This document shows, piece by piece, positions 2,782-53,835 of a stretch of DNA of 64,000 nucleotides. Positions within the stretch are counted from its first letter, which is position 1. Every line of letters begins with the position of its first letter. The position numbers were made by a program, and so were the translations under genes. Location: positions 4,573 to 68,572 of the forward strand of contig JAZDGF010000001.1 in NCBI GenBank assembly GCA_043807135.1, given 5' to 3'. The notes below the pieces were generated by a model that had not been told where the DNA came from, ran no database searches, and was given only the letters and a program-made list of their open reading frames with translations. The DNA comes from Candidatus Levyibacteriota bacterium. GTDB taxonomy: Bacteria; Patescibacteriota; Microgenomatia; Levybacterales; UBA12049.

Positions 2782-4107
2782 CTATTCTAGTGCTTTTAAG
2801 ACACTATTTAAAGTCCTGTTGCTTTCTGCTGTGATTATATTCTTAAAACCAAGCTTATTAGCTTGCTTAATGCGCTTTTCAAGCATGCTTACCCCTCTTA
2901 ACTCTCCTAATAAACCTACTTCTGCAGCTCCAACCGTCTTTTTAAGCGGAACATTCTTAAGACTTGAAAAAACTGCAAGACAAATTGCAAGATCTGCTGC
3001 AGGATCTGAAAGTTTTAGACCACCTGCAACGTTTACAAAAATATCCATCGTGTCAACTGGAAGTCTGCACTGTTTTTGCAAAACTGCAAGAAGCAACTCA
3101 AGCCTTTTATAGTCAAATCCCGAAGCAACCCGTCTTGGCATAGGCAGTTTTGAAAAAACCGCCAAAGCTTGAATCTCAACCAAAAAAGCTCTTGTTCCTT
3201 CAAGAGTAACTGTAAGCACAGACCCTGAAGCATTTGCTTGAGTATCAGTTAAAAAAACTTGTTCTGGATTTTTAACCTCAATCATTCCCTCTTCCTGCAT
3301 CATAAAAATACCAACCTCGTCAACCGGTCCAAATCTGTTTTTAAGACCTCTTAATATCCTAGTGCCAGTATTTTTTTCTCCTTCCAAAAATAAAACTGCG
3401 TCTACCATGTGGGATAAAACCATTGGCCCTGCAACCATACCCTCTTTGGTAACGTGTCCTACAAGAATAATCGGAATATTAAATGCTTTTGCCATTTTTA
3501 TAAACGAAGAGGTTGCATATCTTACCTGGCCAATACTTCCTGATAATCCTCCCAATCCTTCTGACTCCATAGTTTGAATAGAATCAATAATTACCAGGTC
3601 TGGCTTTTCCTCTTCAATTGCTAAAACTACAGCATCAGTATCAGTTATTGCTAAAACCGAAAGATTATTAGCTTTGCCTTTTTTGGAAATTCTATCTGCT
3701 CTTAACTTTAGCTGCTGTTCTGATTCTTCTCCTGAGATATATAGAATTGATTTTTTTGCTTCTCCTCCTGAAAGACTTAAGGCAATTTGTAAAAGAAGTG
3801 TTGATTTACCAATTCCCGGATCTCCTGCCAAGAGAATTACGCTTCCAGGAACAATACCACCACCCAAGACTCCATCTGCTTCTATAAAATCTGTTTTAAG
3901 TCTGTCTTTTTCTTGATATTTTACATCTCCTAATTTTTTTGGAGTAATTGAACGAAGTGAAGTATTTGTTTGCTTACGTACAGATCCTACTTTAGGAGTT
4001 TTAAATTCTTTTAAGGAATTCCATTCTCCGCACTCAGGACATTTTCCAAGCCACTCTGGAGCTTCATATCCACACTCTTGGCAGACAAAAGAAATTAAAG
4101 ATCTCAT
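2782..4107 (-). CDS. radA: DNA repair protein RadA/Sms
   Basis: N-terminal zinc finger CQECGYEAPEWLGKCPECGEWNS, Walker A GDPGIGKSTLLLQ, and a Lon-like C-terminus. Confidence 0.9.
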   Translation of the reverse strand: MRSLISFVCQECGYEAPEWLGKCPECGEWNSLKEFKTPKVGSVRKQTNTSLRSITPKKLGDVKYQEKDRLKTDFIEADGVLGGGIVPGSVILLAGDPGIGKSTLLLQIALSLSGGEAKKSILYISGEESEQQLKLRADRISKKGKANNLSVLAITDTDAVVLAIEEEKPDLVIIDSIQTMESEGLGGLSGSIGQVRYATSSFIKMAKAFNIPIILVGHVTKEGMVAGPMVLSHMVDAVLFLEGEKNTGTRILRGLKNRFGPVDEVGIFMMQEEGMIEVKNPEQVFLTDTQANASGSVLTVTLEGTRAFLVEIQALAVFSKLPMPRRVASGFDYKRLELLLAVLQKQCRLPVDTMDIFVNVAGGLKLSDPAADLAICLAVFSSLKNVPLKKTVGAAEVGLLGELRGVSMLEKRIKQANKLGFKNIITAESNRTLNSVLKALE

Positions 4108-4137: not shown

Positions 4138-5229
4138 TTATCTGTATCCAATGGGTTTTTCCATTAAAACAGGAACCAAAGTTACTCTATGTTTTCTCTT
4201 ATCAACTTCTAAAACAATAAGTGAAACTGTTTGTCCCTCGTTATAAACTGTTTTTGGCGGAATTTTATCTTTTTTAACAATTCCTTCAATCCCATTTCCA
4301 AGATCAAATAATACCCCTGCCGAAATAACTTTAGAAACAGAAGCTGTGATTTTTTTCTCTTGCTCATATTTTTCAAGCTCCTTCTCAAATGGATCACTTT
4401 TTAATCTTTTTACTGACAGATTAACTCTGGCTGCTTTTTTATCAAAACCAACTACAACAGCCTCAATTTTATCTCCTGCTTTATATTCTTTTGGAATTTC
4501 TGTAAGCTTTTCCCAAGAAATTTCTGAGATATGAATTAATCCCTCAATTGGATTTATCTTACCCTGCAAGCTTACAAACACACCAAATGGAGCAATATTT
4601 GATATTGTTGAGGTTATTTTTTGTTCAGGCTTAATGCCAACAATTTCTTTTTCAAAATTAATAGATTGGTTTGCTTTTTGAGAAAATATTATTTTATGCT
4701 GATCTCTGTTTAATTCTATAACGTTTAATTTTATTTTTTTACCAACTGGACTTTGTCCTGCTTCTAAAAATGATGCTTGAGAGTTAGGCAAAAAACCTGA
4801 AATATTATCTGCTAAAACAATAAAACCGCCCTTGGTTGCTTCTGTAATAATTCCTTCTATAATTTTTTTTTGCTGTTGAAGTTCTGCTAATTTTACCCAA
4901 ATCTTATCATTTATAAATCTTCTTAAAGAAACAACTGGGTTGCCAAATTCAGATTCGGGATTAAGAACTGAAACAGTAACTCTGTCCCCTACCTTAAAAC
5001 TATTTAAAATATTTTTCAAAAGCCTTTTGTCTTTTTCTAAAACCAGCGCTTCAGTTTTTGCACCAATGTCAATTAGTATTTCATAGGAAGTTAACTTAGT
5101 AATTGTTCCTTCTAAATTTTCTCCTTTTTTAGGAGATACAAACGCTACTTTAACCGACTTCATTAAATCAGCCATTGAAGTCGCTTTTGAAGTTTTTTTC
5201 TGAAGATTATTTGATTTTTGATCTACCAC
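4138..5229 (-). CDS. S1 RNA-binding domain protein (short ribosomal protein S1-like)
   Basis: Four to five tandem S1-like repeats (GTITKLTSYEILIDIG..., ...GVFVSLQGKINPIEGLIHISEIS...). Confidence 0.65.
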   Translation of the reverse strand: MVDQKSNNLQKKTSKATSMADLMKSVKVAFVSPKKGENLEGTITKLTSYEILIDIGAKTEALVLEKDKRLLKNILNSFKVGDRVTVSVLNPESEFGNPVVSLRRFINDKIWVKLAELQQQKKIIEGIITEATKGGFIVLADNISGFLPNSQASFLEAGQSPVGKKIKLNVIELNRDQHKIIFSQKANQSINFEKEIVGIKPEQKITSTISNIAPFGVFVSLQGKINPIEGLIHISEISWEKLTEIPKEYKAGDKIEAVVVGFDKKAARVNLSVKRLKSDPFEKELEKYEQEKKITASVSKVISAGVLFDLGNGIEGIVKKDKIPPKTVYNEGQTVSLIVLEVDKRKHRVTLVPVLMEKPIGYR

Positions 5230-5299
5230 TCATTAAATTACCTTTCTCTAAAAGATTAGCTAAGTATACACTTAAACCCTTTTTATATCAAGGATTTAT

Positions 5300-9704: not shown

Positions 9705-10577
9705 CATGTATTTGTGCTTTTGCACATCTCCACAATTTCTTGTGGCACTGACTATATCTTCATCCGCCAAGATGGCGGAGTACGGCGTGTGATAGTTAAA
9801 TAACTATCTCACTACTTATCGCGTTATGCGATTTTCGATCAGTCGATACGGGGTCAAGAGGTAATTTATAACGCATTGATAAAATAATATATTTTCGTAT
9901 TAAACTTATCAATTTTTGCGTTTCTATGACACTAAAAATTAAAACAGATCCTTTCTTTTTCTTTTTAACTGTTGGTAAAAGATTGAAATTGTTTTTAAAC
10001 ATCTCCAGTAAATATCTTTTACTCTCTTTGTCAAAGTTTGGAATATAAAGATAGGCTATTTTATCTCTATGATAATAATATCCATCATCCATAAACCAAA
10101 CAGCTAAAGAAAGAGGATTTTTAAAGATTGTCGTTATTGTTTCTGGAATAATCTTTTGCGAATTATCGTAAAAGATGTTTCGCAATTTTCCAAAATCAGA
10201 ACTTGCTGTTGACTGAATACGAACATATTTATATGTTTTTTTCCAGATAGGATTTTTTCTTTCAAGAACTTTTATATTGCTTTGAAAATAGTTTCGTAAT
10301 TGCTCTACTTTCCATTCAAGATAATTTCTCTGAGAAATTCCTTGCTCAAGTCGTAATCTTGCATTCTGCTTACCTGTTTTTTGCAAATAAGCATCGCCTA
10401 AGATCAGACCTATCACGATATCTTTTTGTTTTCGTGTCATTTTTTCCTCCGACTTCCCACGGTATTACCCTTTGCCTCCTCGTAGTGGAAAGACTTGTAA
10501 CCACCAGACAAGAGGGCTTCACCGTTATTAGCCGTATACTTGATTCTATGTTACCATAAAATCGGGACACAGTAATG
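9705..10577 (-). mobile_element. Group I intron with a double-motif LAGLIDADG HEG in 23S at the L2449-equivalent site (GGGGAU|AACAGGCUGA)
   Basis: Exons reconstruct CCCCGGGGAT|AACAGGCTGATCGC. The S-like GAAGATATAGTCAGTGCC lies near the 3' end. It shares GGCTAATAACGGTGAAG(C/T)CCTCTTG and ATACCGTGGGAAG blocks with the intron at 8470-9154. Confidence 0.65.
9796..10440 (-). CDS. LAGLIDADG homing endonuclease (two motifs: IGLILGDAYL, AVWFMDDGYY)
   Basis: Both LAGLIDADG-type motifs are present, and the ORF lies entirely within the intron. Confidence 0.75.
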   Translation of the reverse strand: MTRKQKDIVIGLILGDAYLQKTGKQNARLRLEQGISQRNYLEWKVEQLRNYFQSNIKVLERKNPIWKKTYKYVRIQSTASSDFGKLRNIFYDNSQKIIPETITTIFKNPLSLAVWFMDDGYYYHRDKIAYLYIPNFDKESKRYLLEMFKNNFNLLPTVKKKKKGSVLIFSVIETQKLISLIRKYIILSMRYKLPLDPVSTDRKSHNAISSEIVI

Positions 10578-11032
10578 TATCCCCGGGGTAGCTTTTATCC
10601 GATAAGCTGTGTGCCTACCACTAGGCATCACAGGATCACTAACACCGACTTTCGTCCCTGCTCGACTTGTAGGTCTCGCAGTCAAGCTGGCTTATGTGTT
10701 TGCACTATCACCTTGATTTCCATCCAAGGTTAGCCAACCTTTGTACGACTCCGTTACTCTTTAGGAGTCAACTTCCCCAGTTAAACTGCCCACCAGACAC
10801 TGTTCCTTAGCCGAATTTTTTTGCGGCAATAAGGTAATGATCACTTATTTCAAAGAGAGGTATTTCACTAGCGCCTAAGCTCCCTCCTATTCTAAACAAT
10901 TAAAATAAACTTTCAAATGCCAAGCTACAGTAAAGCTCCCGGGGTCTTTTTGTCCATGCATAATTAGGCCGCGTCTTCACGGCCATCTCAATTTCGCCGG
11001 GTAGATGTTCAAGACAGTTACTCAGTCGTTCT

Positions 11033-11068
<36 letters not shown>

Positions 11069-11089
11069 CTTCGCTACCATAGAACAGTT

Positions 11090-11801
11090 CACTTTTGTTA
11101 CTTGCTCTGATTGATTACAGAGTCTCATGGTCGCCCATGAGGTCGGACTATATCATCCTCACCTTTTCAGGTGGGTTTAGCGTATAGTCTCTGAGGATTC
11201 CTTATTCGAAAATATCTTTATAGCCATATTTTCTTGTTCTTCCCTTACCTTTGTTTAATTTTTCTCTTAAGATTAAAATTCTTTTTAATCCTTTAGTATT
11301 TCTGTGTTCTCCACTTTTAACAAGCTTTGAAATATCACGAAAAATATTAAAGTTGTAAATTTTACTTTTAGAGAGTAAAGGATATTTTGTAAAATATGGA
11401 ATAATTTTATCGACTATTTCTTGAGAGCTTGTAACATCCAGAGAATGCAATCCGTCTTTTCTTACTTTAATAATTCCGCATTTCAATTCTTTTTTTAAAA
11501 CGTAAAGAATTGATGAATCTTTTTGTGAAACATTAAAGCTTAAAACAACTTGCCAATTAACTTTATAATCGCTCTTTTTACGAAGCGAAACATTAAAGCT
11601 TCCTTCTCCTTCTACAAACCCTGCAATAAAATAGCCTAAATTTTCTCGATCAAGGCCTTTCCTGCTGATTGTCTGCGCTGGACGTTTTTTCACCATATCT
11701 TTATATTAACATGGTACCGCCAGATACTTCAACCGTCTGTTTTATACAGTTGCGGTACAGATTTTCCAGCATATAGCTAAATTTTACAACTACAATTGCT
11801 T
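11090..11801 (-). mobile_element. Group I intron with a LAGLIDADG HEG in 23S helix 69 at the L1917-equivalent site (GUAACUAU|AACUG)
   Basis: Exons reconstruct GTAACTAT|AACTGTTCTATGGTAGCGAAG. The 3' core is CCTCAGAGACTATACGCTAAACCC...GAGGATGATATAGTCCGACC (R/P8/S). Confidence 0.65.
11202..11696 (-). CDS. LAGLIDADG homing endonuclease (single motif LGYFIAGFVEGEGSF)
   Basis: LAGLIDADG motif near the N-terminus, inside the L1917 intron. Confidence 0.75.
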   Translation of the reverse strand: MVKKRPAQTISRKGLDRENLGYFIAGFVEGEGSFNVSLRKKSDYKVNWQVVLSFNVSQKDSSILYVLKKELKCGIIKVRKDGLHSLDVTSSQEIVDKIIPYFTKYPLLSKSKIYNFNIFRDISKLVKSGEHRNTKGLKRILILREKLNKGKGRTRKYGYKDIFE

Positions 11802-12639
11802 ATAGTTACTGCTGCCGTTTACTGGAGCTTGTATCCTAAGCTGAACATTGCTGTCTCACTAGAGATACTTGACTTACCAGCACTGGGCAGGTGTCAGCCC
11901 CTATACTTTGCCTTTCGGCTTTGCAGGGACCTATGTTTTAGATAAACAGTCGCTAAATACACTTTTGTTGAAACCGCGTTCTTACACGCGGCAAGGCATC
12001 TCCCATAGGTTACGCCTAGCTTTTTTGCCGAGTTCCTTGAACATCTTTCTCCCGATCGCCTTAGTCTACTCGACCAGCCCACCTGTGTCGGTAATCGGTA
12101 CGGTAAAATATGAGTTTTTTCCGATAAATCGGAACCAATGAGGCTTTTCTTGGAAACTGAAACGTACTATATTGTTCCCTATTGCTAGGAAACTTTCACT
12201 CGTAGTTCAATTAAACAGATTAAGGGATTTGCCACTTATTCCTACTTTACTACTTGGACCCATCTTGCGATAGGCATAGTTTTTCCAATTCCGTTACCCC
12301 CTCAGAATACTCATATTCTGTAGTCGAATTTCAACGACTTATCCATCGAGTTACCCCCCATTATTAAGGGACACCCTTAGGACCGACTAACCCTCCGCTG
12401 ACTTACATTGCGGAGGAAACCTTGGGCATTCGGCGGTCCTGTTTCTCACAGGACTCTCGCTACTCATACCGGCATTCTCACTTCTGTCCGCTCCACAACA
12501 CTTTACAGTTGTTGCTTCACCGCAAACAGAACGCTCCCCTACCAACCTTACGGTTCTCCAGCTTCGGCAAAGAACTTAATCCTCGGTGGATTTTCGGCGC
12601 CAAGTACCAATCCTCCAGTGAGCTGTTACGCTATCTTTA

Positions 12640-12670
<31 letters not shown>

Positions 12671-13239
12671 TTGTCTCTGGAACCTGACTTCCTTCCAAAC
12701 TTAGTTCTTATTTAGAGGCCTTAGCTGGGAGTCTGGGCTGTTTCCCTTTTGACCCATCAGCTTAGCCCGAAGGGTCTGACTAGGATACAACAAGCTCTGG
12801 CATTCGGAGTTTGATTGGTTGCGAGAAATTACTTCCCCACGAACCATTCAGTGCTCTACCTCCAAAACTCTATACGTATCCCGCTATACCAAAATATATT
12901 TCGGGGAGAACCAGCTATCTCTGAGTTCGTTTGGCATATAGCCCCTAACCTCAAGTCATCTCATACCATTGCTACGGTAACGAGTTCGGGCCTCCTCCTA
13001 CATCTCTGTAGGACTCACCCTGCTCAAGGCTAGCTCACTCAGTTTCGGGTCTACTAACTGCAACTAACGACCAATTAGGTCACGCTTTCACTATGTCTCC
13101 GTTACGTTCCGTAACTTAGACTAACGCTGCAATCAATAACTCACCGGTTCATTCTTCAATAGGCACGCCATTATCCTTACGGACTCTGGCTGCTTGTTAG
13201 CCAACAATTTCAGGTCTATTTCATCCCCCTCCCGGGGTG

Positions 13240-13278
<39 letters not shown>

Positions 13279-13942
13279 AGACTTTGGTGTTTAGTCTTGG
13301 AACGTGGCCGCCCCAGCTTCCCACAGGGTTTTATCGTACCCCATGGTACTTAGGTACAAACTATCGGGGTCTTTCCTTTCATGTACGAGCCTTTCACTCT
13401 CTATGGGGGATTATTCCAAATCCTTCTATTAGAAAAAACCGCATCGAATATCGTCTGCCCTGCAACCCCCGAATAAATTCGGGTTTAGACTTTTCCGCTT
13501 TCGCTCGCCGCTACTTACGGAATCTCGTATGATTTCTTTTCCTGGTGTTACTAAGATGTTTCAGTTCACACCGTTCCCCACCAAACACTATATATATCAT
13601 TGCTGATATATTTTTATGTTTGGTTCTTGTAAAAACAAGGGGTTTCCCCATTCGGAAACCGCCGGATCATAGGTTTATGACACCTACCCGACGAGTATCG
13701 CCGCCATATGCGTCCTTCCTCGGCCAAAATCTCCTAGGCATCCATTATTGGCATTATGAGTAGATTTAAATTATGTTAATTCCGTTAAATTTTCCGTAAA
13801 CAAAAATGCTTTTGGAAAATCAAACGGAAATTCTTCTCCTCACTTGTCAAAGAGCCAAATCATTATCTTTTCGGGATAACCCCCTCTCACTAGGGGGCTT
13901 GCCCCAAAAGATAATCTTACTAGTTTTATTTAGCTTGACGAG

Positions 13943-42444: not shown

Positions 42445-42493
42445 AAAGGGATTATATCAAACTTGAAGCTAAATAGGTTTTTGGAGTTATTTG

Positions 42494-42568
42494 TACCAGG
42501 GGGGAGGATCGAACTCCCGAACCTCGGGGGTATGAATCCCGCGCTCTAACCAACTGAGCTACCCTGGC
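42494..42568 (-). tRNA. tRNA with CAU anticodon (Met-type; Met versus Ile2 versus initiator cannot be resolved by eye)
   Basis: Reverse complement GCCAGGGTAGCTCAGTTGGTTAGAGCGCGGGATTCATACCCCCGAGGTCGGGAGTTCGATCCTCCCCCCTGGTA forms a cloverleaf with loop TTCATAC. The first acceptor pair is G1-U72; no CCA is encoded. Confidence 0.8.
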
Positions 42569-43242
42569 ATATTTATCTTCAAACCCTCAATAAGTCCAAT
42601 AATTTTATGATAAAGGAGACCTGGCTTTCTAACTCTGATCCTAATTGTACCATAATGATTGTTGAAATTCTCATAAACCTTTTTGTTTTCAGTTTTTTTA
42701 AAACTAGTCTTTGTAAACTGATTTTCTTTAACTCTTAACGTTTTTAACCAATATTTTTTAACTACCTGCTCTCTTTTTCTATGGCTTTCATTAATTCCTA
42801 TGCTACATATTAAGTTATTAGAATTAATTCCGAAACATATTTTGAGCCAATGTGCAAAGAATTTTACCATTTCTGGATCTGAATTACAAAAAGAAAATTC
42901 ATTACTTTTTTTACTGCCTTCTCCCCAATAAATGCCTAGGCCGCTGACAAGAAATTCTCGTTTAGTAAAATTTTTTAACGATTTAATTCCAGATTTCTTG
43001 TTTTCAGCTATTAATTTTAATCTTTTTTCTTTTTGCAGAAAAGCACTCCTTAATCTTCCTAATTCTGCACCTTTTATTGAAGACTTTCGTAATTTTTCTA
43101 GTTGCTGCACACTTAAAATAATATCCCTTACCCAAATACTTGCAGTGCCTTTAGAAATGCTCAATTTTTTTGCAATTTTATTCACACTTATACCCCTTTT
43201 GCGAAGTCTCCGAGCCTCAATTTTTAATTTAAATTTAGCCAT
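42559..43242 (-). CDS. Free-standing HTH + LAGLIDADG-like protein (paralog of 50681-51385), 3' end overlapping the tRNA 5' end
   Basis: N-terminal HTH (RLRKRGISVNKIAKKLSISKGTASIWVRD). Central LVSGLGIYWGEGSK followed by NSDPEMVKFFAHWLKICFGI, reminiscent of a single LAGLIDADG motif and the following helix. Confidence 0.55.
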   Translation of the reverse strand: MAKFKLKIEARRLRKRGISVNKIAKKLSISKGTASIWVRDIILSVQQLEKLRKSSIKGAELGRLRSAFLQKEKRLKLIAENKKSGIKSLKNFTKREFLVSGLGIYWGEGSKKSNEFSFCNSDPEMVKFFAHWLKICFGINSNNLICSIGINESHRKREQVVKKYWLKTLRVKENQFTKTSFKKTENKKVYENFNNHYGTIRIRVRKPGLLYHKIIGLIEGLKINMPG

Positions 43243-43342: not shown

Positions 43343-43626
43343 CACGCGCGGGGTAGTGTACAGTGCACATGAGGCTCAATATGGGCCCCTTTGCTAGTAA
43401 TGGCAAAAGAGAATTCGGCTGTATCGGTGAAATCCTAACAATATTTAAGTATTGAAGGACAACACCGAGGGAACCTACTTGTTAAGTGGGACACCGTAGA
43501 GACTAAACGCCGAACCCCTTTCATAAGGGTGATGATATAGTCCGACACTCTAAGTAATTAGAGAAACAGATTGCATAATCTCATAGGCTAGGCGCAACTC
43601 CTAGCCCCGCAACACAGGTTTTTTAA
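43343..43626 (+). ncRNA. Promoter-driven ~285-nt RNA with a group I intron catalytic core, not embedded in a recognisable host gene
   Basis: R-like GTAGAGACTAAACG, P8-like hairpin CCCCTTTCATAAGGG, S-like GATGATATAGTCCGAC and P9-like CTCTAAGTAATTAGAG. It is near-identical in order and sequence to the 3' core of the 23S L1917 intron. A 3' hairpin GGCTAGG...CCTAGCC is followed by CCGCAACACAGGTTTTTT. Confidence 0.5.
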
Positions 43627-44212: not shown

Positions 44213-44277
44213 AAGAATTAGATTCTATCATCGTCTATTCCACGTAGCACAAGTAGCATGTTAAATAAATATTTTAA

Positions 44278-44367
44278 CCTAAATCCGGTATAAATACTGG
44301 CGTGATCTGGAGAAGGAAGAAGGTGTGTATTTCTTCCAGTCCCCGCAACATCGGTTTTTTAGCCTCA
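44278..44367 (+). repeat. Inter-cassette repeat copy R1 (~90 nt)
   Basis: CCTAAATCCGGTATAAATACTGGCGTGATCTGGAGAAGGAAGAAGGTGTGTATTTCTTCCAGTCCCCGCAACATCGGTTTTTTAGCCTCA. Confidence 0.8.
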
Positions 44368-45217: not shown

Positions 45218-45291
45218 ACACTGGCGTGGTTTGGGAGAGAAAATAGGTGCGTATTTCTTCCAATCCCCGCAACATCGGTTTTTTAGCCTCA
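45203..45291 (+). repeat. Inter-cassette repeat copy R2 (5' end overlaps the EEP gene stop; hairpin degenerate)
   Basis: GTAAATCAGGAATAAACACTGGCGTGGTTTGGGAGAGAAAATAGGTGCGTATTTCTTCCAATCCCCGCAACATCGGTTTTTTAGCCTCA. Confidence 0.75.
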
Positions 45292-45326
45292 GTTTTTCAG
45301 AACTAAGTAGGGTAATTTGCACCTTC

Positions 45327-45335
45327 TGGTATAAT
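45327..45335 (+). promoter_or_regulatory. Extended -10 element (TGGTATAAT) 6 nt upstream of the FabZ-like ATG (predicted leaderless)
   Basis: TGGTATAAT at 45327-45335; ATG at 45342. Confidence 0.45.
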
Positions 45336-45341
45336 CTCCGT

Positions 45342-45815
45342 ATGTCCCCTGAACGACGCAGTTTAAAAAGAACTGATATAGAAGGTATTCTTCCTCATAG
45401 AAGACCTTTCATGTTTTTAGAAAGTGCTGAAATTGTTGAACCGGGCGTTAAAGCAATTGGTGTTCTTGCAGATTTATCACATCCAGATTTTGCTTTCCTT
45501 AAAGGTCATTTTCCTTCATTTCCTATAGTCCCAGGGGCAATTCTCATGGAAACGCTCGCAGAGCTTTCGGGTATAGCAGTTAGCTCTAGAGCCTCAGGAC
45601 AACATAATAAAATTGGTGTTTTGAGAAGAGATGCTATGGATTATAAGCAAATGGTGAAGCCTGGCGATTTGGTGCAGTTAGAGGCAGAGGTTTTTGCATT
45701 AAAGATGGGTATTGGAAGAAGCCGAGTAAAAGCGATTAAAGATGGAAAAACCGTAGTGGAAGGAGAAATAGTTTTTGCACTAATTGACAAACCCGAAACT
45801 CAACTCTTATCCTAA
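45342..45815 (+). CDS. FabZ/FabA-like hotdog-fold dehydratase
   Basis: ILPHRRPFMFLE...GHFPSFPIVPGAILMETLAELSG matches the FabZ active-site region. The ORF-track start at 45231 lies inside repeat R2, so the Met at 45342 is preferred. Confidence 0.65.
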   Translation: MSPERRSLKRTDIEGILPHRRPFMFLESAEIVEPGVKAIGVLADLSHPDFAFLKGHFPSFPIVPGAILMETLAELSGIAVSSRASGQHNKIGVLRRDAMDYKQMVKPGDLVQLEAEVFALKMGIGRSRVKAIKDGKTVVEGEIVFALIDKPETQLLS

Positions 45816-45897
45816 ATCTGGTATAAATACAGGCGTAGTTTGGGAGAGGAAGAAAGTGCGTATTTCCTCCAACCTCCGCAACATTGCAATTTAGGTT
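45811..45897 (+). repeat. Inter-cassette repeat copy R3 (supplies the FabZ-like stop codon; terminal inverted repeat CCTAAAT...ATTTAGG)
   Basis: CCTAAATCTGGTATAAATACAGGCGTAGTTTGGGAGAGGAAGAAAGTGCGTATTTCCTCCAACCTCCGCAACATTGCAATTTAGG. Confidence 0.8.
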
Positions 45898-45947
45898 GAT
45901 ATAACAAGTTAAACTAAAACCCGAACTCCCCTGATGATACAAATCTA

Positions 45948-46226
45948 TTATGCCTTTAATTCTTGATTCATTCTCTCGCTTATGAACATTTTCATTAAAG
46001 ACTGATAAGGAATATCTTTTTTGTTTGCAATCTCTTTAATGCGAGCAAGTAAATAAGATGGCAACCTTAATGAGATTGACTCTGTTGACGGTTTTAAATT
46101 GGGGAAAATCATTTCCTCACTTTTAGACCAATCAAAATATTCAGACGAGTCCGCTTTTGCCCAAAATTTTCTTTCCTCGTCTTCATTGTTAAAATTTGGA
46201 ATTTGTTTAAGTTTTTTCATATTCAC
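45948..46226 (-). CDS. brnA: BrnA-like antitoxin
   Basis: ...FWAKADSSEYFDW...ISLRLPSYLLARIKEIANKKDIPYQSLMKMFISE matches the BrnA pattern; 20-nt overlap with brnT. Confidence 0.7.
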   Translation of the reverse strand: MNMKKLKQIPNFNNEDEERKFWAKADSSEYFDWSKSEEMIFPNLKPSTESISLRLPSYLLARIKEIANKKDIPYQSLMKMFISERMNQELKA

Positions 46227-46503
46227 CTCTTTCTTTTTTGTGCATGTCTCTTGCTGAAATTACCCTAATTCTATTATTCCTAATCGTAAAAAAAATCGTT
46301 AACTTTCTATTTGTATTTGTTTTTCCCCAAAGCATATATCTTTTTTCTATTGTTGAATGTTTTTTATCTTCAGAAAAAACAATGGGTTTATTAAAAAATA
46401 CTTCTTCCGCTTCCTGATTATAAACATCATGTTTTTTAAGATTTTTATCAATATTTCCCTTATCCCATTCAAATGCGACTACTTTAGGCAAAACCTTAAT
46501 CAC
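46207..46503 (-). CDS. brnT: BrnT-like toxin (DUF497 ribonuclease)
   Basis: FEWDKGNIDKNLKKHDV...RVISARDMHKKERGEY matches the BrnT pattern; GTG start. Confidence 0.75.
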   Translation of the reverse strand: MIKVLPKVVAFEWDKGNIDKNLKKHDVYNQEAEEVFFNKPIVFSEDKKHSTIEKRYMLWGKTNTNRKLTIFFTIRNNRIRVISARDMHKKERGEYEKT

Positions 46504-46509
46504 AATAAA

Positions 46510-46539
46510 AGTATATTACAGAAATATACATCTGTCAAG
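46510..46539 (-). promoter_or_regulatory. Sigma-70 promoter (TTGACA-17-TATACT) 7 nt upstream of the brnT GTG start (predicted leaderless)
   Basis: Reverse complement TTGACAgatgtatatttctgtaaTATACTtttattgGTG. Confidence 0.45.
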
Positions 46540-46611
46540 TACTAATGGTATTTGAGGCTAAATCCCAAGCCTCTCTTATAGGCGATGTTGGAACAACTGC
46601 TTGGATTTTAT

Positions 46612-46701
46612 TCTAAATCAGGTATAAATACAGGTGTGGTTTGGGAGAGGAAAAAGGTGCGTATTTCTTCCAATCCCCGCAACACAAGTCTTTTAGCCTC
46701 A
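46612..46701 (+). repeat. Inter-cassette repeat copy R4
   Basis: TCTAAATCAGGTATAAATACAGGTGTGGTTTGGGAGAGGAAAAAGGTGCGTATTTCTTCCAATCCCCGCAACACAAGTCTTTTAGCCTCA. Confidence 0.8.
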
Positions 46702-46812
46702 AAATAGGTTCTATAACATCATCTATCCCTCGGAACTCAGGATTTCATTTGGAGATGTCTAGTACTGGGTATTGTCTATGTAGTTTTCAAAGCACCCGTT
46801 AAGGTGACTGAC

Positions 46813-47583
46813 CTATTTTTTAGAAGTTTTTTTTACCATGCCCTCGAAGGCACGAAGTATTTCTAGAGGCGTGACAAATACGATAGTGTTATTTTTATCA
46901 GCAGATAACTCACCTAGGGTTTGAAGAGTTCTAAGATGTAAACCTCCTGCTGTTGAAACAAGCTTTTTTGCTGCCAAAGCAATATTTTCTGATGCTGATT
47001 TTTCTCCCTCAGCCCGTATAATAATTGCCCTTCTTTCCCGTTCCGCCTCTGCCTGACGGGCAATTACCCTCTTCATCTCATCCGGCAAGATAATATCTTT
47101 TAGCTCCACTGATTCCACCTTTATCCCCCAAGGGTCTGTGGCTTTATCTATAATTTTTTGAATATTTTTTGCCACATCATTTCTTTTGGATAAAAGGTCA
47201 TCAAGGGCTGTTTCTCCCACTACATTCCGCATGGTAGTTTGAGCAAGTTGGGATACGGCATAATAATAATCTTCTACTTCAATGACTGCTTTGTTTGCTA
47301 TGTTTATACGGTAGTAAATAACTGCATTGACTTTTGCTGAAACATTGTCTTTGGTAATGGCTTCCTGATCCGGTACATCAACGGCTTTAACCCGCATGTC
47401 TATCCTAATCCAGGATTCTATAACCGGCAAAATAATCCTCCACCCAGGACTCATCAACCCTACATATTTACCAAATCTAAATTTAACACCACGCTGATAT
47501 TGATTGACCTGTTTTATGGAATAAATAAGAAGCAATAATAAAGGGAATATCAATAGACCTTCCATATAAATGTAGTATACCAT
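46813..47583 (-). CDS. SPFH/band-7 (stomatin/prohibitin-like) protein
   Basis: N-terminal TM, then an SPFH core (...RIDMRVKAVDVPDQEAITKDNVSAKVNAVIYYRI...). Confidence 0.8.
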   Translation of the reverse strand: MVYYIYMEGLLIFPLLLLLIYSIKQVNQYQRGVKFRFGKYVGLMSPGWRIILPVIESWIRIDMRVKAVDVPDQEAITKDNVSAKVNAVIYYRINIANKAVIEVEDYYYAVSQLAQTTMRNVVGETALDDLLSKRNDVAKNIQKIIDKATDPWGIKVESVELKDIILPDEMKRVIARQAEAERERRAIIIRAEGEKSASENIALAAKKLVSTAGGLHLRTLQTLGELSADKNNTIVFVTPLEILRAFEGMVKKTSKK

Positions 47584-47747
47584 ACTCTACTGACCAACTT
47601 CCTCATAGTATAAATCATTAAAGCGACACCAATAATAATTAAAGGCATGCCCAGTATCAAATTCCAACCAGAAACACGAGAGACAAAAAAAATTACGAAT
47701 ACTCCATTTAATTGCCGGGGTAGTCATACTTGCGATGGGCGTTGTAA

Positions 47748-48188
47748 TTATAGCGGGTTTGATTTAATGTTTTTGCAAGTCTTGCATTTTCCAAAAAATT
47801 CAACCTTATGCTCTTCTGTTTCAAAACCATAAAGCTTATTAGCTGTTTTTGAAATTTTATCAATCTGATCATGAAGTAAATCGCTTTTTATATCTTTAAC
47901 ATTTCCGCATTTAGTACAAACAATGTGATGGTGATGAGGTAAGGAAGTGAGTTCATAACGGAATTTTCCTTCATTAAACTCTACTTTATTAATAAGCCCT
48001 TTTTTAGTCATAAGATTAATGTTTCGGAAAACAGTTACCCTATCGATTTTTATACTTGTTTGATTAAGTTTTTCAATTATTTCACTTACGCTAATTGGCT
48101 TTTTTATTTTTTTTAATATATTTAAAATAGCAGTTCTTGCCAAAGTTTTCTTTATCTCTTTTCCTTTTAATATATTTTTTGTATTCAT
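47748..48188 (-). CDS. Fur family metalloregulator (likely Zur)
   Basis: HHHHIVCTKCGNV...CKTCK metal sites and an N-terminal winged helix. It is divergent from a ZIP transporter gene. Confidence 0.85.
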   Translation of the reverse strand: MNTKNILKGKEIKKTLARTAILNILKKIKKPISVSEIIEKLNQTSIKIDRVTVFRNINLMTKKGLINKVEFNEGKFRYELTSLPHHHHIVCTKCGNVKDIKSDLLHDQIDKISKTANKLYGFETEEHKVEFFGKCKTCKNIKSNPL

Positions 48189-48306
48189 AGAGTGATATTA
48201 TAACCAAAATCTATTCTTACTACAATTTCCACTTGACATAAAGTATAATAAGACATTATACTACTAAATGCAACTCTGTTGCATCTTATTACAAGACAGT
48301 ATTTAA

Positions 48307-49050
48307 ATGGAAAAACTTATTTTTATTTTTATTGCAACTTTTTTAATTAGCCTTGCTTCTTTAATAGGTGTTTTTACTCTTTCAATTAAAGAAAAGGTTT
48401 TGTCAAAATTTCTTCTGTTTCTTGTTTCGCTATCAGCAGGTGCCTTAATGGGTGGGGCTTTTCTTCACCTTTTACCCGAAGCCTCTGAAAAGCTCAACAA
48501 TGGAGATATGTATACTATTGTTTTACTTTCTTTTGTTCTGTTTTTCTTAATAGAGAAGCTTCTTCATTGGCGCCATTGTCATAAAAAAAACTGTAAAGTT
48601 CACACATTTGGCTATATGAATCTTTTTGGGGATGCTGTTCACAATTTTATCGATGGATTAATTATTGCAGCGACTTTTTTAATCGATGTAAATTTAGGTA
48701 TAGTAACAAGTTTTGCCATTGCTCTGCACGAAATACCACAGGAAATTGGAGATTTTGGAGTCCTCCTTTATTCCGGATTTAGTCGCAAAAAGGCTCTTAT
48801 TTCTAATTTCTTAGTAGGGCTGACTGCAGTTTTTGGAGGTATTCTTGGATATTTCCTCTCACTTCAAATAGAAAATATGACATCATATCTTCTTCCCTTT
48901 GCTGCAGGAGGATTTATTTACATTGCTGCTTCAGACTTAATGCCTGAAATGCGAAAAGAAGCCAGTCTTAAAAAATCTATGATTTCTTTTGGCGTCTTTC
49001 TTATCGGCATTCTTATTATGTTTTTAGTTAAATTTATTGGTCATGAGTGA
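48307..49050 (+). CDS. ZIP family zinc transporter (ZupT-like)
   Basis: HEIPQEIGDFGVLL signature; paralog of 21540-22280. Confidence 0.85.
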   Translation: MEKLIFIFIATFLISLASLIGVFTLSIKEKVLSKFLLFLVSLSAGALMGGAFLHLLPEASEKLNNGDMYTIVLLSFVLFFLIEKLLHWRHCHKKNCKVHTFGYMNLFGDAVHNFIDGLIIAATFLIDVNLGIVTSFAIALHEIPQEIGDFGVLLYSGFSRKKALISNFLVGLTAVFGGILGYFLSLQIENMTSYLLPFAAGGFIYIAASDLMPEMRKEASLKKSMISFGVFLIGILIMFLVKFIGHE

Positions 49051-49151
49051 AAGTGTATCTAAAATCATTTAACTAAAGCGCCTCACATATTAAATTTGAG
49101 CGTAAAAAGTTCCCACATAATCAACTAGAGCCAGAAGAATTGATAAGCTAG

Positions 49152-49227
49152 CCTAAATCTGGTATAAATATAGGCGTTGTTTGGGCAAGGAAGAATGTGC
49201 GTATTTCTTCCAACCCCCGCAACACAA
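49152..49227 (+). repeat. Inter-cassette repeat copy R5 (tail replaced by hairpin ATCGCTC-CAAAA-GAGCGAT + T-run)
   Basis: GCCTAAATCTGGTATAAATATAGGCGTTGTTTGGGCAAGGAAGAATGTGCGTATTTCTTCCAACCCCCGCAACAC. Confidence 0.75.
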
Positions 49228-49720: not shown

Positions 49721-50581
49721 ATGAAACCTATTAAATTACGGGATGCCCACCAAGAATTTACAAAATTTTTAAAAGATAAGAATCATTCAAATTCAACCGT
49801 TGTTGCTTATGGTAAGGATATTGATCAGCTTATTTCTTTTCTCGAAGAACTTGAAAAAAACCATATCCATGAAGTATCTAAAGAAAATATTGAAGCTTTC
49901 CTAGCTAAGATGGGTAAAAATGGCTATACCCCAAAGTCAATTTCAAGAAAAATTAATTCTACAAGAACTTTTTATAGGTTCTTAAAAGTAAACGAATATG
50001 TTACAGATGACCCTTCTCTTTTAATTTCTCATCCAACTTATCAACTTGCTCCACCCAGAATTCTTACACCAACCGAATACAGAGCTTTAAGAGATGCTGC
50101 TAGAAATGATGCTAGAATGTACGCTGTTATTGAGCTTTTGCTTCAAACAGGAATTAGAATCGGTGAACTTGCCAACCTTAGGCTTTCAGATATTAAGAAT
50201 GACAGTCTAAGAATTGCTCCTTTTGAAAAACATGAAGAAAGAACCGTTCCTCTTAATAGAAGAGCAAAGGAAGCTTTAAATAGCTATATTAAGATAAGAC
50301 CAAATGTAAAAGAAGAAACTGTTTTCATTACAAAATCAGGAAAGCCTTTCTTGATTAGAAATATCAGAACTGCAATTGAACGCTATTTCAGACTTGCTGA
50401 AATAAAAAATGCTAAAGTAAACGATTTAAGACATACTTTTGTTGCCCATCACTTAAAACATGGTGTTTCTTTAATTGTTCTATCTAGGGTGTTGGGGCAT
50501 AAAAGACTTTCTACGACTGAACGTTATCTTCAATACGTTGCTGATCGAGGAAAAGAAACTCAGTCTCTTAGCGAACTTTAA
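49721..50581 (+). CDS. Tyrosine recombinase/integrase (XerC/XerD-like size; no IntI-specific insertion seen)
   Basis: Catalytic R...H-x-x-R...Y pattern (LRHTFVAHHLKHG...LGHKRLSTTERYLQ); 286 aa. Confidence 0.85.
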   Translation: MKPIKLRDAHQEFTKFLKDKNHSNSTVVAYGKDIDQLISFLEELEKNHIHEVSKENIEAFLAKMGKNGYTPKSISRKINSTRTFYRFLKVNEYVTDDPSLLISHPTYQLAPPRILTPTEYRALRDAARNDARMYAVIELLLQTGIRIGELANLRLSDIKNDSLRIAPFEKHEERTVPLNRRAKEALNSYIKIRPNVKEETVFITKSGKPFLIRNIRTAIERYFRLAEIKNAKVNDLRHTFVAHHLKHGVSLIVLSRVLGHKRLSTTERYLQYVADRGKETQSLSEL

Positions 50582-50594
50582 AGTAGATTCCAGG

Positions 50595-50668
50595 TGGGTC
50601 AGGATGGATTCGAACCATCGAACTTCCATTTTATAAGAATGGCACTCTAACCACTGAGTTACTGACCC
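50595..50668 (-). tRNA. tRNA-Ile with UAU anticodon
   Basis: Reverse complement GGGTCAGTAACTCAGTGGTTAGAGTGCCATTCTTATAAAATGGAAGTTCGATGGTTCGAATCCATCCTGACCCA. Anticodon stem CCATT/AATGG, loop CTTATAA; the variable loop appears to be 6 nt. Confidence 0.7.
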
Positions 50669-50680
50669 AATTCGTGACAA

Positions 50681-51385
50681 TTATACCATGACTTCAAGTC
50701 TTTCTGCATAATAATTAGAGATAGCTTTTATTGTCATCATAATTTTTTCTTTTATCAGAATATTGCTTACTAATAAACCGCATGTTCCATGACCAAATCC
50801 CTTGTGATCTATCTTAACTCTCGTGCTTTGTTTAATATAAGGCTTTGCAAACTGCGACAGTGGAAGCTTTAATACTTTACTCCAATACTTCATTTCTTTT
50901 TTAATATCCATATCCTTATATAGCTGTAAGGTAACTTTTATTCTCTTTTTAGGAATTTCTAATGCATTTACCATCCAACATAAAGTGAACGTAAGCATTT
51001 CAGGATCTGTATTGTTAACAACAATTGGACCATTCATTCGCTTTGTTCCTTCTCCCCAATATAAAAATATTCCAGCTAGTTCAAGTTCTTTTTTGCTTAG
51101 AGATGACCAACGCTCTTTTTCTCTTTTATATGTTACATTTATTCTGCTTTCACGTTTTTTTTGTTTTGTAATCCTAATTTTCTCTATACTTAAAAACTTA
51201 TTTTTCTTTCTCGTCTTTTCAAGCTGAATTATTTGCTTTGTAGTTAGAGGAAGTTTTGCAATCCAGTCAGAAAGTGTACTTTTTGAAACATTTATTTCCC
51301 GTCTAATTTCACTATAAGTTTTACCTTGTTTTCTTAATCTTATCGCTTTTGCTCTATCGTTTAACCTTGCCATAAAACGAACCAT
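50681..51385 (-). CDS. Free-standing HTH + LAGLIDADG-like protein (paralog of 42559-43242), immediately 5' of tRNA-Ile
   Basis: N-terminal HTH (IRLRKQGKTYSEIRREINVSKSTLSDWI); LAGIFLYWGEGTK followed by NTDPEMLTFTLCWMVNALEI. Confidence 0.55.
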   Translation of the reverse strand: MVRFMARLNDRAKAIRLRKQGKTYSEIRREINVSKSTLSDWIAKLPLTTKQIIQLEKTRKKNKFLSIEKIRITKQKKRESRINVTYKREKERWSSLSKKELELAGIFLYWGEGTKRMNGPIVVNNTDPEMLTFTLCWMVNALEIPKKRIKVTLQLYKDMDIKKEMKYWSKVLKLPLSQFAKPYIKQSTRVKIDHKGFGHGTCGLLVSNILIKEKIMMTIKAISNYYAERLEVMV

Positions 51386-51468: not shown

Positions 51469-53835
51469 TTAGAGCCTTGCTCTAGCAGCAATTTCTGCCT
51501 CAATGGAGTTTACTTCTTTTCCGTATTTAAGCCTAGATAATTCTTTTATAAGTTCTGCAACTCTTGGATTCTCCGCTGCTTTCTCTTTTGCCATATCCCG
51601 AGTTAAATCCATAGAAAAAGGCGGAATCGGTTCTCCATAAACTACTGTTTTTATATAGGCGTTATATCTATCAACATTAATAAGGTCTGCTTCGGTAAAT
51701 ACCGGCTGGAATTCATGTTGGAGATAGTTTGCATCTGTAACACCTACCCTAAATGCTGTAAGAGTTCCCACGTTTCCAAAAATTGCATTTTTAACTTCTT
51801 CATCCATTTGTCCAATAAACTGATTCGCAACTATTAAATTAAGCCTGTATTTTCTTGCTTCAGATAAAATTTGGGCAAAATCAGGAGTCGCAAAATTTTG
51901 AAACTCGTCTACATATAGATAAAAATCTCGCCTTGATTCTTCAGGAATATCTTGCCTACTCATTGCAGCAACTAAAATCTTAGGAACTAGAATAAGTCCC
52001 AAAAATGCAGAGTTTTCTTCTCCGATTTTTCCCTTGGAAAGTGAAACCAAAAGAATTTTTCCTTCATCCATTACTTTTCTAAAATCAAAGGAAGACTCTG
52101 ATTGTCCGATAATATTTCGCATCATTTTATTGGTTACAAAACGACCGAACTTAGAGACAATATAATCAAGTACTTCAGATTTATGAAAATCACTTGTCTG
52201 AGCAATCTGATCAGTCCAGTAACGTCTTATAATCGGGTCTTTTACTTTTGGTAAAAGTTCTTCTACAAAAGTAGAATCTGTTAAAACACGAACAACTTCT
52301 ATAAAAGTATTACCAGGCTCAGACATAACCGTAAGCATGGCGTTTCTAATTGCGTGCTCAAAACGTGGACCGATAATTCCTGTTTTATTAGGATCATAAA
52401 GCTTATACATAAGTCCAACGATTGCAGAAACTACATAGTGTTTTTGATCTTCTGTTTTTGCCTCAAGCATGTTTAATCCCATTGGCCGATCTACGTCTGA
52501 GGGATCAAATAATATTACATCTTCAGCTCGCTCAGGTGGAATAAGAGGTAAAAGCTTATCAATAGTATCATGAGGATCAATAAAACAAACACCTTCTCCG
52601 TTTTTAATGTCTTGCAAAATCATATCTTTTAGAAATTCTGATTTTCCAACACCGGTTTTTCCAATAGTATACATATGTTTTCTCCTATCATCTCTTTGCA
52701 TATAAATAGGTTTTGATAAGCCTCTAAAAATGCTCCTTCCTAAGAAAAGACCTGTGTCTGGAATTTGTGCAGGAGCTGGTGCTCTTTTTGAGGTAAGCCA
52801 GTGAATATGCGGAGTTTGCACCTGTTTATTTGGAAAATGAAAAATCGTTGCCAGCTCCTCACTTGTTAAGACTGATGTTTGACCTCGCATTGGCATATAT
52901 CTGTAAACAAAATCCGTCATAAACATGCCTTTAACCAAATGCTTATTTGTTGTAAAAGAATTTGCTCCAGAGAATTGGCTAAAAGCATTTTTAATATTAT
53001 TCAAATGAGCTTCTGCTGATTCTTTGGTGCTTGATGAAACAACCATTCTTATTACCACATTAAAGCCTGGTTTTGAAATTTTATTTTCAACCCCTTCTAG
53101 TTCTTTTGAATCAGATGAATACTTAGCAGTTTCTGGGTTTGCCTCAGATTTTTTAGTAGAAGCAATATAGCTCCTACCTCTTTTTTTCCATCTTGAACCG
53201 GCCGGCTCAACAATAATCTGAATTGCAGCTCCCTCCCCTTCAGCCATTTTTGCTAAAACAGAAGTAATTGAAGAAAGAGAATCAGTCGGTAAGTCTTTAA
53301 AAACTTTAATTGGTAAGTAATCCGAAGTTTTAAGCTTCATGCTCGCAACAACAACTTTTCCTTCATTGGAAAAAATATTATATTCATTACCAAAGGTATA
53401 TCCTTGTCTTCCAGACTTTGAATCAACTACTTTAATCTCTGCGTCAGGATATGCGCCATTAATTTGCTTTTCAATTAAATCCTTGTATTTATTTGGCACA
53501 TCAACATAAAAACGGATGTCTTGTGGAATACCGACAATCTCAAAAGTAAGATGCGGTTGAGATTTTAAAAAACTTAACTTCCCACTTTTTCTTAAACCTG
53601 CAATACCTGCAAAAAGCTGCTCTGCTGCGTCAATTTTTATTTCATTGTCTCTTGGAAGTGTAATTTGTAAAAGAGTTGAATTAAGTGAATCTTTTTCTCT
53701 ATTCCTATGTCTATACCAAAGATATATTACGTAAAAAATTGCTGCTGATGTGAGAACAATAAAAGAAGAAATTAAAAACCCAAGAAAAAGAGATATTAAA
53801 AAAGGGTACAGCTGATCTAGTGTAAAGTTAATCAT
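51469..53835 (-). CDS. VirD4/TraD/TraG-like type IV coupling protein ATPase (membrane-anchored)
   Basis: N-terminal TM helices, Walker A TIGKTGVGKSEFL, Walker B LYVDEFQNF. Confidence 0.5.
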   Translation of the reverse strand: MINFTLDQLYPFLISLFLGFLISSFIVLTSAAIFYVIYLWYRHRNREKDSLNSTLLQITLPRDNEIKIDAAEQLFAGIAGLRKSGKLSFLKSQPHLTFEIVGIPQDIRFYVDVPNKYKDLIEKQINGAYPDAEIKVVDSKSGRQGYTFGNEYNIFSNEGKVVVASMKLKTSDYLPIKVFKDLPTDSLSSITSVLAKMAEGEGAAIQIIVEPAGSRWKKRGRSYIASTKKSEANPETAKYSSDSKELEGVENKISKPGFNVVIRMVVSSSTKESAEAHLNNIKNAFSQFSGANSFTTNKHLVKGMFMTDFVYRYMPMRGQTSVLTSEELATIFHFPNKQVQTPHIHWLTSKRAPAPAQIPDTGLFLGRSIFRGLSKPIYMQRDDRRKHMYTIGKTGVGKSEFLKDMILQDIKNGEGVCFIDPHDTIDKLLPLIPPERAEDVILFDPSDVDRPMGLNMLEAKTEDQKHYVVSAIVGLMYKLYDPNKTGIIGPRFEHAIRNAMLTVMSEPGNTFIEVVRVLTDSTFVEELLPKVKDPIIRRYWTDQIAQTSDFHKSEVLDYIVSKFGRFVTNKMMRNIIGQSESSFDFRKVMDEGKILLVSLSKGKIGEENSAFLGLILVPKILVAAMSRQDIPEESRRDFYLYVDEFQNFATPDFAQILSEARKYRLNLIVANQFIGQMDEEVKNAIFGNVGTLTAFRVGVTDANYLQHEFQPVFTEADLINVDRYNAYIKTVVYGEPIPPFSMDLTRDMAKEKAAENPRVAELIKELSRLKYGKEVNSIEAEIAARARL

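Follow-up and report, generated by a model that had tools for sequence, protein, structure and literature searches.

The locus described here raises the question of how one gene pair came to lie backwards in an otherwise regular array. In a 64-kb stretch of DNA from a Candidatus Levyibacteriota bacterium (hereafter, the window), the genes for the toxin BrnT and the antitoxin BrnA (brnTA) are found on the minus strand within a series of small gene cassettes, each of which ends in a copy of the same repeat. The original prediction was that the tail, promoter, genes and repeat start of this toxin–antitoxin (TA) unit had been inverted together by a crossover within or near a conserved GCAACA block. 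We compared the window with related loci, all of the sequences being metagenome assemblies. The best explanation, which we consider reasonably probable, is that the locus is a cassette array anchored on a tRNA gene, and that brnTA occupies a cassette running from core to core (the core being the block that closes each repeat), with a repeat in the standard orientation and a reversed interior that was inherited with the cassette. The model would be corrected accordingly in two points: GCAACA is a cassette boundary, and the reversal is a heritable cassette architecture, not the scar of a local inversion.

The comparison set consists of 49 loci with the repeat family, obtained by pattern scans of genome and metagenome collections (metagenome-assembled genomes (MAGs) of Patescibacteria and Levybacteria, and metagenomes); some of these loci overlap one another. 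L050–L073 are the contexts of close BrnT homologues and represent nine clusters. Repeat copies were matched to a repeat model with nhmmer, tRNA genes were identified with ARAGORN, the intron with Rfam, and protein domains with Pfam and NCBIfam profiles.

Boundaries of the brnTA cassette

The ribonuclease toxin gene brnT (46207–46503; PF04365, E = 6.5e-23) and the CopG-type antitoxin gene brnA (45948–46226; PF12441, E = 2.8e-32) are both on the minus strand, as predicted. The two genes overlap by 20 nt in the type II arrangement, in which a BrnT (DUF497) toxin is followed by an overlapping CopG/ribbon-helix-helix antitoxin. The score with the NCBIfam BrnA model is 48 bits, under the curated cutoff of 60 bits. 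The promoter, TTGACA-17 nt-TATACT (46538–46510), matches the consensus at 11 of 12 positions and was likewise correctly placed on the minus strand.

The segment at issue (45811–46611) extends from the start of the repeat R3 to the base preceding the repeat R4. R3 (45811–45883, plus strand), composed of an arm and the core CCTCCGCAACA, matches positions 3–84 of the repeat model; it is intact up to CCGCAACA and then reads TTGCAATTTAGG, leaving the consensus exactly where the original prediction had placed the departure. R4 (46612–46684, plus strand), with the core CCCCGCAACA, matches the model with 105 bits and shares 89% identity with the repeat located after brnTA in another genome, L046.

The positions at which the homology between the window and L046 begins and ends should be noted. 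Window positions 45884–46684 are collinear with positions 10441–11244 of L046, with 83% identity overall and 89–95% in the non-coding scaffold. The homology begins at the first base past GCAACA (45884) and stops at the R4 core (46684). The left flanks are unrelated, being R3 of a FabA-like cassette in the window and the tRNA itself in L046, and the right flanks part after the generic tail. The brnTA cassette of L046 sits directly behind the tRNA, and its payload is reversed likewise. A second pair, a canonical TA cassette of L046 and its counterpart in L041, is ~96% identical by eye; here the homology begins right after AACA and stops at CCCCGCAAC. Since these two independent cassette pairs, from different genomes and array positions, are homologous exactly core to core, GCAACA is judged to be a genuine site-specific recombination point and the cassette boundary, and the alignments show that cassettes pass between genomes as core-to-core units. 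The housekeeping genes murD and tgt flanking the array are 65–71% identical in nucleotide sequence between the window and L046, and the flanking housekeeping proteins are 62–71% identical. The cassette scaffold is far better conserved than murD and tgt, and the brnTA cassette has therefore moved horizontally.

These boundaries assign the two repeats differently from the original prediction. R3 is the 3′ end of the preceding FabA-like cassette (45275–45883), and R4, not R3, is the recombination repeat of the brnTA cassette, which by comparison with L046 comprises, on the plus strand, a palindromic junction, the reversed payload, a linker, and R4 with its core (45884–46684). R3 being an ordinary repeat of the preceding cassette, its departure after GCAACA is a normal cassette boundary. 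Because the same layout is found at another array position in L046, the reversal travels with the cassette and is not a local flip at GCAACA. The reading of GCAACA as a footprint of site-specific recombination thus held for the recombination point itself and failed for a local inversion at that point.

The tRNA-fMet anchor and the array

The gene for tRNA-fMet(CAU) at 43347–43614 on the plus strand contains a group I intron. Exon 1 (43347–43376) and exon 2 (43574–43612) are separated by an intron of 197 nt (43377–43573), which is covered by an Rfam Intron_gpI match at 43367–43564 (78.9 bits, E = 2e-19). The intron sits between positions 33 and 34, a previously known site in tRNA-fMet (PMC13011429). 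ARAGORN missed the unspliced sequence, the T-loop of which is unusual (CGCAACT), and called the spliced exons as a tRNA-Met(CAT) of 70 nt with a C1×A72 mismatch. The core, CCCCGCAACA, corresponds to the 3′-terminal bases of the tRNA (43605–43614) and also closes all five repeats in the window. Since the spliced exons are identified as a tRNA-fMet ending in the core, the GCAACA block is the end of the tRNA, made up of the 3′ strand of the acceptor stem, the discriminator base and two additional bases, and is copied at each repeat end. The tRNA-fMet gene is the anchor of the array, an attB-like site, and the same tRNA opens arrays in more than 10 other loci.

In the repeat search, a unit of ~97 nt was found on the plus strand of the window in five copies, at 44275, 45199, 45808, 46609 and 49149, and in a sixth, partial copy at 43599, in which only the last ~16 nt and the following tail are common to the others. 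Each cassette closes with a repeat of ~75 nt, the last 10 nt of which copy the tRNA 3′ end, and most cassettes open with a conserved tail and a promoter module. The orientation of the repeats is uniform within every locus (106 repeat matches in the window and the 49 loci, some overlapping). The array starts with the tRNA followed by a tail and ends with a tail-less repeat, which abuts the 3′ end of an ftsB-like gene followed by a gene for a Xer-like recombinase; the ftsB-xer pair is found 3′ of the last repeat in at least 12 loci. The flanks are syntenic across the loci (Tgt-MurD-tRNA-helix-turn-helix (HTH) on one side and FtsB-Xer-tRNA-HTH-TraG-like on the other), and the cassettes between them vary by genome.

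The Rfam search gave no family that matches the repeat, RNAalifold gave no consensus structure for a fold as RNA or single-stranded DNA, and helices drawn by hand, with 81% of bases paired, showed covariation not above that of shuffle controls. A tRNA-like acceptor helix in the repeat is partially supported, in a minority of the copies. The possibility that the arm is a diverged intron 3′ end joined to tRNA exon 2 was ruled out, the likeness to the tRNA being limited to the last ~16 nt and the tail.

Two observations on the repeat family are added here. The invariant tail word AGCCTCA (44360–44366, 45284–45290 and 46694–46700) has its complement, UGAGGCU, in the final 7 nt of exon 1 of the tRNA (43370–43376), which comprise the 5′ strand of the anticodon stem and C32-U33 and contribute to the intron helix P1; the complementarity may be due to chance. 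In six loci (L007, L028, L030, L034, L045 and L049; for example, L034 2421–2470), only the 3′ half of the repeat and the core are in common with the others, and the tail after the core differs (AATGTTTTTAGCCCGTAACAGCGGGCTATTTTT, with a terminator-like hairpin), which may represent a sister array family. Scans of viral contigs for the repeat and motif M (described below) gave one marginal partial repeat match (E = 7e-4) in an uninformative context.

Reversed tail and motif M

The forward canonical tail (CAAGTCTTTTAGCCTCAAA) after R4, at 46685–46703, opens the next cassette and is followed by a forward motif M (46705–46735). Its reverse complement is found inside the brnTA cassette at 46551–46562 (TTTAGCCTCAAA on the minus strand; TTTGAGGCTAAA), the only minus-strand occurrence in the 64 kb. 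The word TTAGCCTCA occurs in the three plus-strand tails and in one minus-strand copy at 46553, and nowhere else in the window. Together with the tail that comes after R4 (46692–46703), the reversed tail makes up an inverted repeat of 12 nt without mismatches, and the chance expectation of the 12-mer TTTAGCCTCAAA in the 728-nt segment is ~1e-4. It adjoins the promoter as the forward tails do and is kept in the L046 cassette. The reverse-complement tail claimed beside the promoter is thus real. When the reverse strand of 45884–46611 was aligned with the core and tail junctions, the similarity consisted of a tail word of 10–12 nt, beyond which it was no better than that of shuffles.

Motif M (GGTTCTnAACATCGTCTATCCCTCGG / AATAGGTTCTAACATCGTCTATCCCTCGG) lies upstream of the reversed tail in gene orientation. 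The copy at 46578–46599 on the minus strand (CAGTTGTTCCAACATCGCCTAT) includes CCAACATCG and aligns with GGTTCTAACATCGTCTAT of M in L046, L021, L058 and L050. The right-hand word CAACATCG / CCAACATCG, which had been taken as a copy of the core, aligns instead with M (GGTTCTnAACATCGTCTATCCCTCGG). Downstream of brnA, a degenerate M (AATAGATTTGTATCATCAGGGGAGTTCGGG; 45916–45947, minus strand) was recognized by eye from M of L072, L021 and L050. In canonical cassettes, M opens the 3′ module, 25–50 nt ahead of the repeat; the degenerate M is 36 nt from CCTAAAT, versus 37–39 nt in forward cassettes (by eye). The order on the minus strand inside the brnTA cassette is consequently the canonical one: M, tail, promoter, brnT, brnA, M, ~36 nt and CCTAAAT. 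That the tail, promoter, genes and a word resembling a repeat start are reversed together is borne out by this order, and what does not agree is the placement of the junctions at GCAACA.

M and the tail constitute the entire junction between genes in compact arrays of other genomes of the candidate phyla radiation (CPR), namely L058, L066 and L072. These arrays consist of small genes, many of them in TA pairs including brnTA, divided by one junction of ~45 nt (AATAGGTTCTAACGTCGTCCATCnnnGGGAGCnnnnnTTAGCCTCAAAA, M and tail), and they have no tRNA-like repeat. The junctions are observed in L058 at 2340–2400, in L066 at 2360–2445, 3055–3095, 4465–4500 and 5185–5235, and in L072 at 690–735, 1190–1245, 1865–1915 and 3055–3095. 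The compact junction may serve either for recombination or as a terminator/promoter module. The energies of an attC-like single-stranded fold of the ~45-nt junction were no better than those of shuffles, except for the copy in the window, which has a GAGGCT/AGCCTC hairpin (z = −2.2).

The payload is related to modules outside the arrays. We found 967 BrnT homologues, the closest of which are 92–97% identical and lie in other CPR contexts; an exact-protein look-up of BrnA and BrnT of the window, with three start choices, gave no record. The payload module (45942–46546; 605 nt with promoter, brnT and brnA) is 90–94% identical to brnTA modules in the unrelated, repeat-less loci L050–L065. In the contexts L050–L073, neither a tRNA-like repeat nor a version of the brnTA cassette with a forward payload was found. 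The payload alone recurs in repeat-less contexts, and therefore both the reversed tail and the M motifs are parts of the scaffold of the cassette and not of the TA module. In the comparison of the window with L046, brnT (75% identity) and brnA (82%) are less conserved than the non-coding scaffold (92–95%). This difference, together with the close similarity of the payload to the copies in unrelated contexts, suggests that an allele was replaced inside a conserved scaffold.

A palindromic junction after the core

The sequence following the R3 core is a 28-bp imperfect palindrome (45888–45915), AATTTAGGTTG-ATATAA-CAAGTTAAACT, with arms of 11 bp and a spacer of 6 bp (11-6-11), which is conserved right after the core in place of the tail (an ‘alt tail’). 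TTGCAATTTAGG is the beginning of this palindrome. The proposal that TTGCAATTTAGG is a reversed, truncated repeat start could not be retained, since the match is only 7 nt (CCTAAAT) and belongs to the palindromic junction. The palindrome follows the core in six cassettes, one each in the window, L046 and L006 and three in L021, and nowhere else in the loci. The arms match at 8–9 of 11 positions in five of the six copies and at 6 of 11 in the remaining one (L021c), and the 6-bp spacer is variable.

Genes on the minus strand are found in five of the six palindrome cassettes, versus 6 of 39 canonical-tail cassettes (counted as minus-only; Fisher p = 0.002). The palindrome is also combined with minus-strand genes in L021 and L006, the cassettes there being unrelated; the TA pair in the L006 cassette has a forward homologue, with 44–55% identity, in canonical cassettes of L008 and L043. 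These comparisons place the brnTA cassette in a recurrent class of reverse-payload cassettes. The class is marked by the palindrome, which may be a binding site for a protein or the recombinase.

Candidate recombinase and origin of the reversal

The Xer-like tyrosine recombinase (286 aa; 49721–50581, plus strand; PF00589 and PF02899) is syntenic with the distal end of the array. It gives 150–169 bits with the XerD, XerC and XerA models, under the equivalog cutoffs, 65.5 bits with the integron-integrase model TIGR02249 (cutoff 265), and 25–28 bits with invertase models. No recombinase domain was found in any tested protein of the window's cassettes. From its synteny, the Xer-like enzyme is a candidate for the recombinase acting in trans.

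In the proposed mechanism, a tyrosine recombinase, for which the Xer-like enzyme is the candidate, would cross over in the tRNA-derived core to integrate and excise cassettes. The payload would be free to take either orientation, as the TA module brings its own promoter. Everything between the R3 core and R4 reads backwards, and R4 itself is in the standard orientation. The reversal would have arisen earlier, once per lineage, and would predate the split of the window and L046 copies. Two routes are conceivable: the whole inter-repeat segment may have flipped between two inverted hexamers, namely ATTTAG, which follows the core, and CTAAAT, at the start of the repeat, or a reversed module bounded by M and tail may have been captured from a compact array. 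The palindrome would be the resulting head-to-head junction of tails and may serve as a binding site. The breakpoints of the reversal are probably not at GCAACA; the best candidates are the hexamers at 45889–45894 (ATTTAG) and 46613–46618 (CTAAAT), such words bracketing every inter-repeat segment.

Several observations weigh against this explanation. All the data are metagenome assemblies. The brnTA cassette of this type occurs in only one other genome, L046, and the Xer-like gene may simply be a housekeeping Xer. The palindrome cassette at 3056–3732 of L021 carries a plus-strand gene, that of L006 has no clear reversed tail, and several canonical-tail cassettes also hold minus-strand genes, so orientation is not strictly tied to the junction type. 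The right end is unlike that of a clean flip, the reversed tail being separated from the next repeat, in every example, by 12–55 extra nucleotides that include M; the second route, capture of a reversed M/tail-bounded module, is therefore kept beside the first.

In the strict form of this capture, an inversion never happened: a brnTA module bounded by M and tail in a compact array, such as those of L058, L066 and L072, was taken up backwards beside a repeat, and the palindrome is two tails placed head to head. The payload is indeed flanked on both sides by compact-type M and tail junctions in gene orientation, the 90–94% identical copies of 45942–46546 lie in such contexts, and both arms of the palindrome can be read as tail-like words (TTTAGnTTG). 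However, no mechanism is known for such a capture, the palindrome is kept across unrelated payloads, and the reversed 3′ module retains the canonical spacing from M to CCTAAAT (36 versus 37–39 nt), as is expected from a flipped complete canonical cassette. We consider this alternative unlikely.

A programmed invertible element, phase-variable or similar to a shufflon, is still harder to reconcile with the data and appears improbable. On the left, its site would be the palindrome or ATTTAG, and on the right, the reversed tail or CTAAAT; the hexamers and the 12-nt tail pair are inverted words that bracket the segment, a tyrosine recombinase gene is nearby, and brnTA modules in both orientations have a precedent in the pdif modules of Acinetobacter plasmids (PMC7885321). 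Nevertheless, the inverted words are only 6–12 nt long, and it is R4, not the payload, that lies between the longest pair. Expression would not be switched by a flip, the TA promoter lying within the segment itself. Among the 106 repeat matches, none is flipped relative to the others of its own locus. Both assemblies with the brnTA cassette show one and the same orientation, and we found no evidence of an invertible switch there.

The inversion originally predicted, that of a forward brnTA cassette in place by crossover between GCAACA of R3 and the inverted CCAACA block (46586–46591), is very improbable. CAACA (45879–45883) and TGTTG (46586–46590) do form inverted 5-mers flanking the segment, and reversal in silico restores a canonical-looking junction, CCGCAACA/TCGCC...TTTAGCCTCAAAT. 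This inversion is largely refuted by the identical reversed layout behind the tRNA in L046, in which the homology runs through both supposed breakpoints. The left junction is the conserved 28-bp motif common to unrelated cassettes, and the right-hand word belongs to motif M, with the homologues GTTCTAACATCGTCTAT. An insert of 18 nt separates the right-hand word from the tail, and the alignment is not significant. A crossover of R3 with the GCAACA-like block at 46578–46591 also disagrees with the cassette boundaries, R3 being an ordinary repeat of the FabA-like cassette and the mobile unit (45884–46684) including R4. A chance resemblance or an assembly artefact, in which the reversed tail and junction words would be meaningless, can be dismissed with near certainty: the individual words are short and MAG assemblies can mis-join at repeats, but it is refuted by the ~1e-4 expectation of the 12-mer and by the whole 801-bp layout reproduced in the independent assembly L046, and the architecture recurs in L021 and L006.

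Comparison with known recombination systems

The array resembles integron cassette arrays in that cassettes of one or two genes each close in a recombination repeat of fixed orientation, cassette content varies between genomes within conserved flanks, and the cassettes have no recombinase of their own. TA cassettes of sedentary chromosomal integrons have their own promoter (PMC13108822), and gene orientation therefore need not follow the array. Unlike integrons, the locus has no IntI, the only nearby tyrosine recombinase scoring far below the integron-integrase cutoff and higher on Xer models. Searches with a regular expression on either strand of the five window repeats gave no ordered pair of RYYYAAC...GTTRRRY (R″/R′) boxes, and a single hairpin in the repeat is not supported by RNAalifold or by covariation relative to controls. 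A tRNA 3′ end takes the place of attI as the anchor of the array, the last repeat of which has no downstream half-site. Most cassettes here have their own tail and -10/-35 module, in contrast to the promoterless integron cassettes under the promoter Pc.

Integrative elements and islands that target tRNA genes, in tandem accretion with attL and attR, are similar in their target, the 3′ end of a tRNA gene that stays intact, and in having units bounded by a direct copy of the last 10–16 nt of the tRNA. They differ from the present units, which are 0.4–2.5 kb in length, carry neither integrase nor excisionase, share a further non-tRNA arm of ~65 nt conserved in all units, and stand up to six in a row.

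The Xer-dependent pdif modules of Acinetobacter are small, lack their own recombinase, and often carry TA pairs including brnTA; a 28-bp site of 11-6-11 and a Xer-like gene in the vicinity are found here as well. Compared by eye with the proteobacterial dif consensus, the palindrome has a likeness limited to the outer TAAACT. The 11-6-11 site is present at the left end only (45888–45915), with only half-site-like tails on the right side, and the cassette boundaries coincide with the tRNA-derived core and not with the palindrome, in a chromosomal, tRNA-anchored setting. A pdif brnTA module is inverted between related Acinetobacter plasmids (PMC7885321), and the pdif system is the closest precedent for a reversed brnTA module. 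Inversion switches (Hin/Gin, Fim and shufflons) share with this locus a reversed gene segment, short inverted words, and a tyrosine recombinase gene a few kilobases away. They are unlike it in that here one orientation is seen in two assemblies, the promoter is part of the segment, the inverted words span 6–12 nt, and the reversed state passes between genomes with the cassette.

CPR/Patescibacteria have tiny genomes, and we know of few gene-acquisition mechanisms described for them. Searches of the literature on Patescibacteria for cassette arrays that are integron-like or anchored on a tRNA gave no relevant description. We tentatively propose a previously undescribed cassette platform of Levybacteria-like CPR genomes without IntI or attC, in which the Xer-like enzyme would act in trans, payloads would come from a CPR pool of modules with M and tail, and the reversed brnTA would be a product of recombination on inverted half-sites. 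Such a platform would have two classes of cassette start, the forward tail and the 28-bp 11-6-11 palindrome that marks reverse-payload cassettes. The locus shows precise core-to-core exchange of 0.4–2.5-kb cassettes at tRNA-fMet with neither an integron integrase nor attC, which would be an independent solution to the problem that integrons solve. The reverse-payload class and its palindromic junction provide a handle on the sequences recognized by the recombinase, and, its junctions being defined, the system can be tested directly on synthetic substrates.

Other features of the array region

The interval between R4 and R5 (46685–49224; 2.5 kb) contains genes for an SPFH/Band 7 protein and Fur on the minus strand and a ZIP transporter on the plus strand, which look like housekeeping genes and lie inside the array. 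The tail after R4 runs straight into the forward M motif and resembles the start of an ‘empty’ cassette.

Two paralogous HTH proteins, both on the minus strand and both kept in related loci, bracket the array region (42559–43242, 227 aa, and 50681–51385, 234 aa). Each of them abuts a tRNA gene, tRNA-Met at 42493–42568 and tRNA-Ile(tat) at 50593–50668, respectively. The 788-aa protein encoded at 51469–53835 on the minus strand has weak TraG/TraD/TrwB coupling-protein domains and is found with 75–92% identity beside the array flank in related genomes. Elsewhere in the window, the 23S rRNA match (10541–13766) spans 3226 nt, compared with 2925 nt for the model, which is probably due to insertions or introns.

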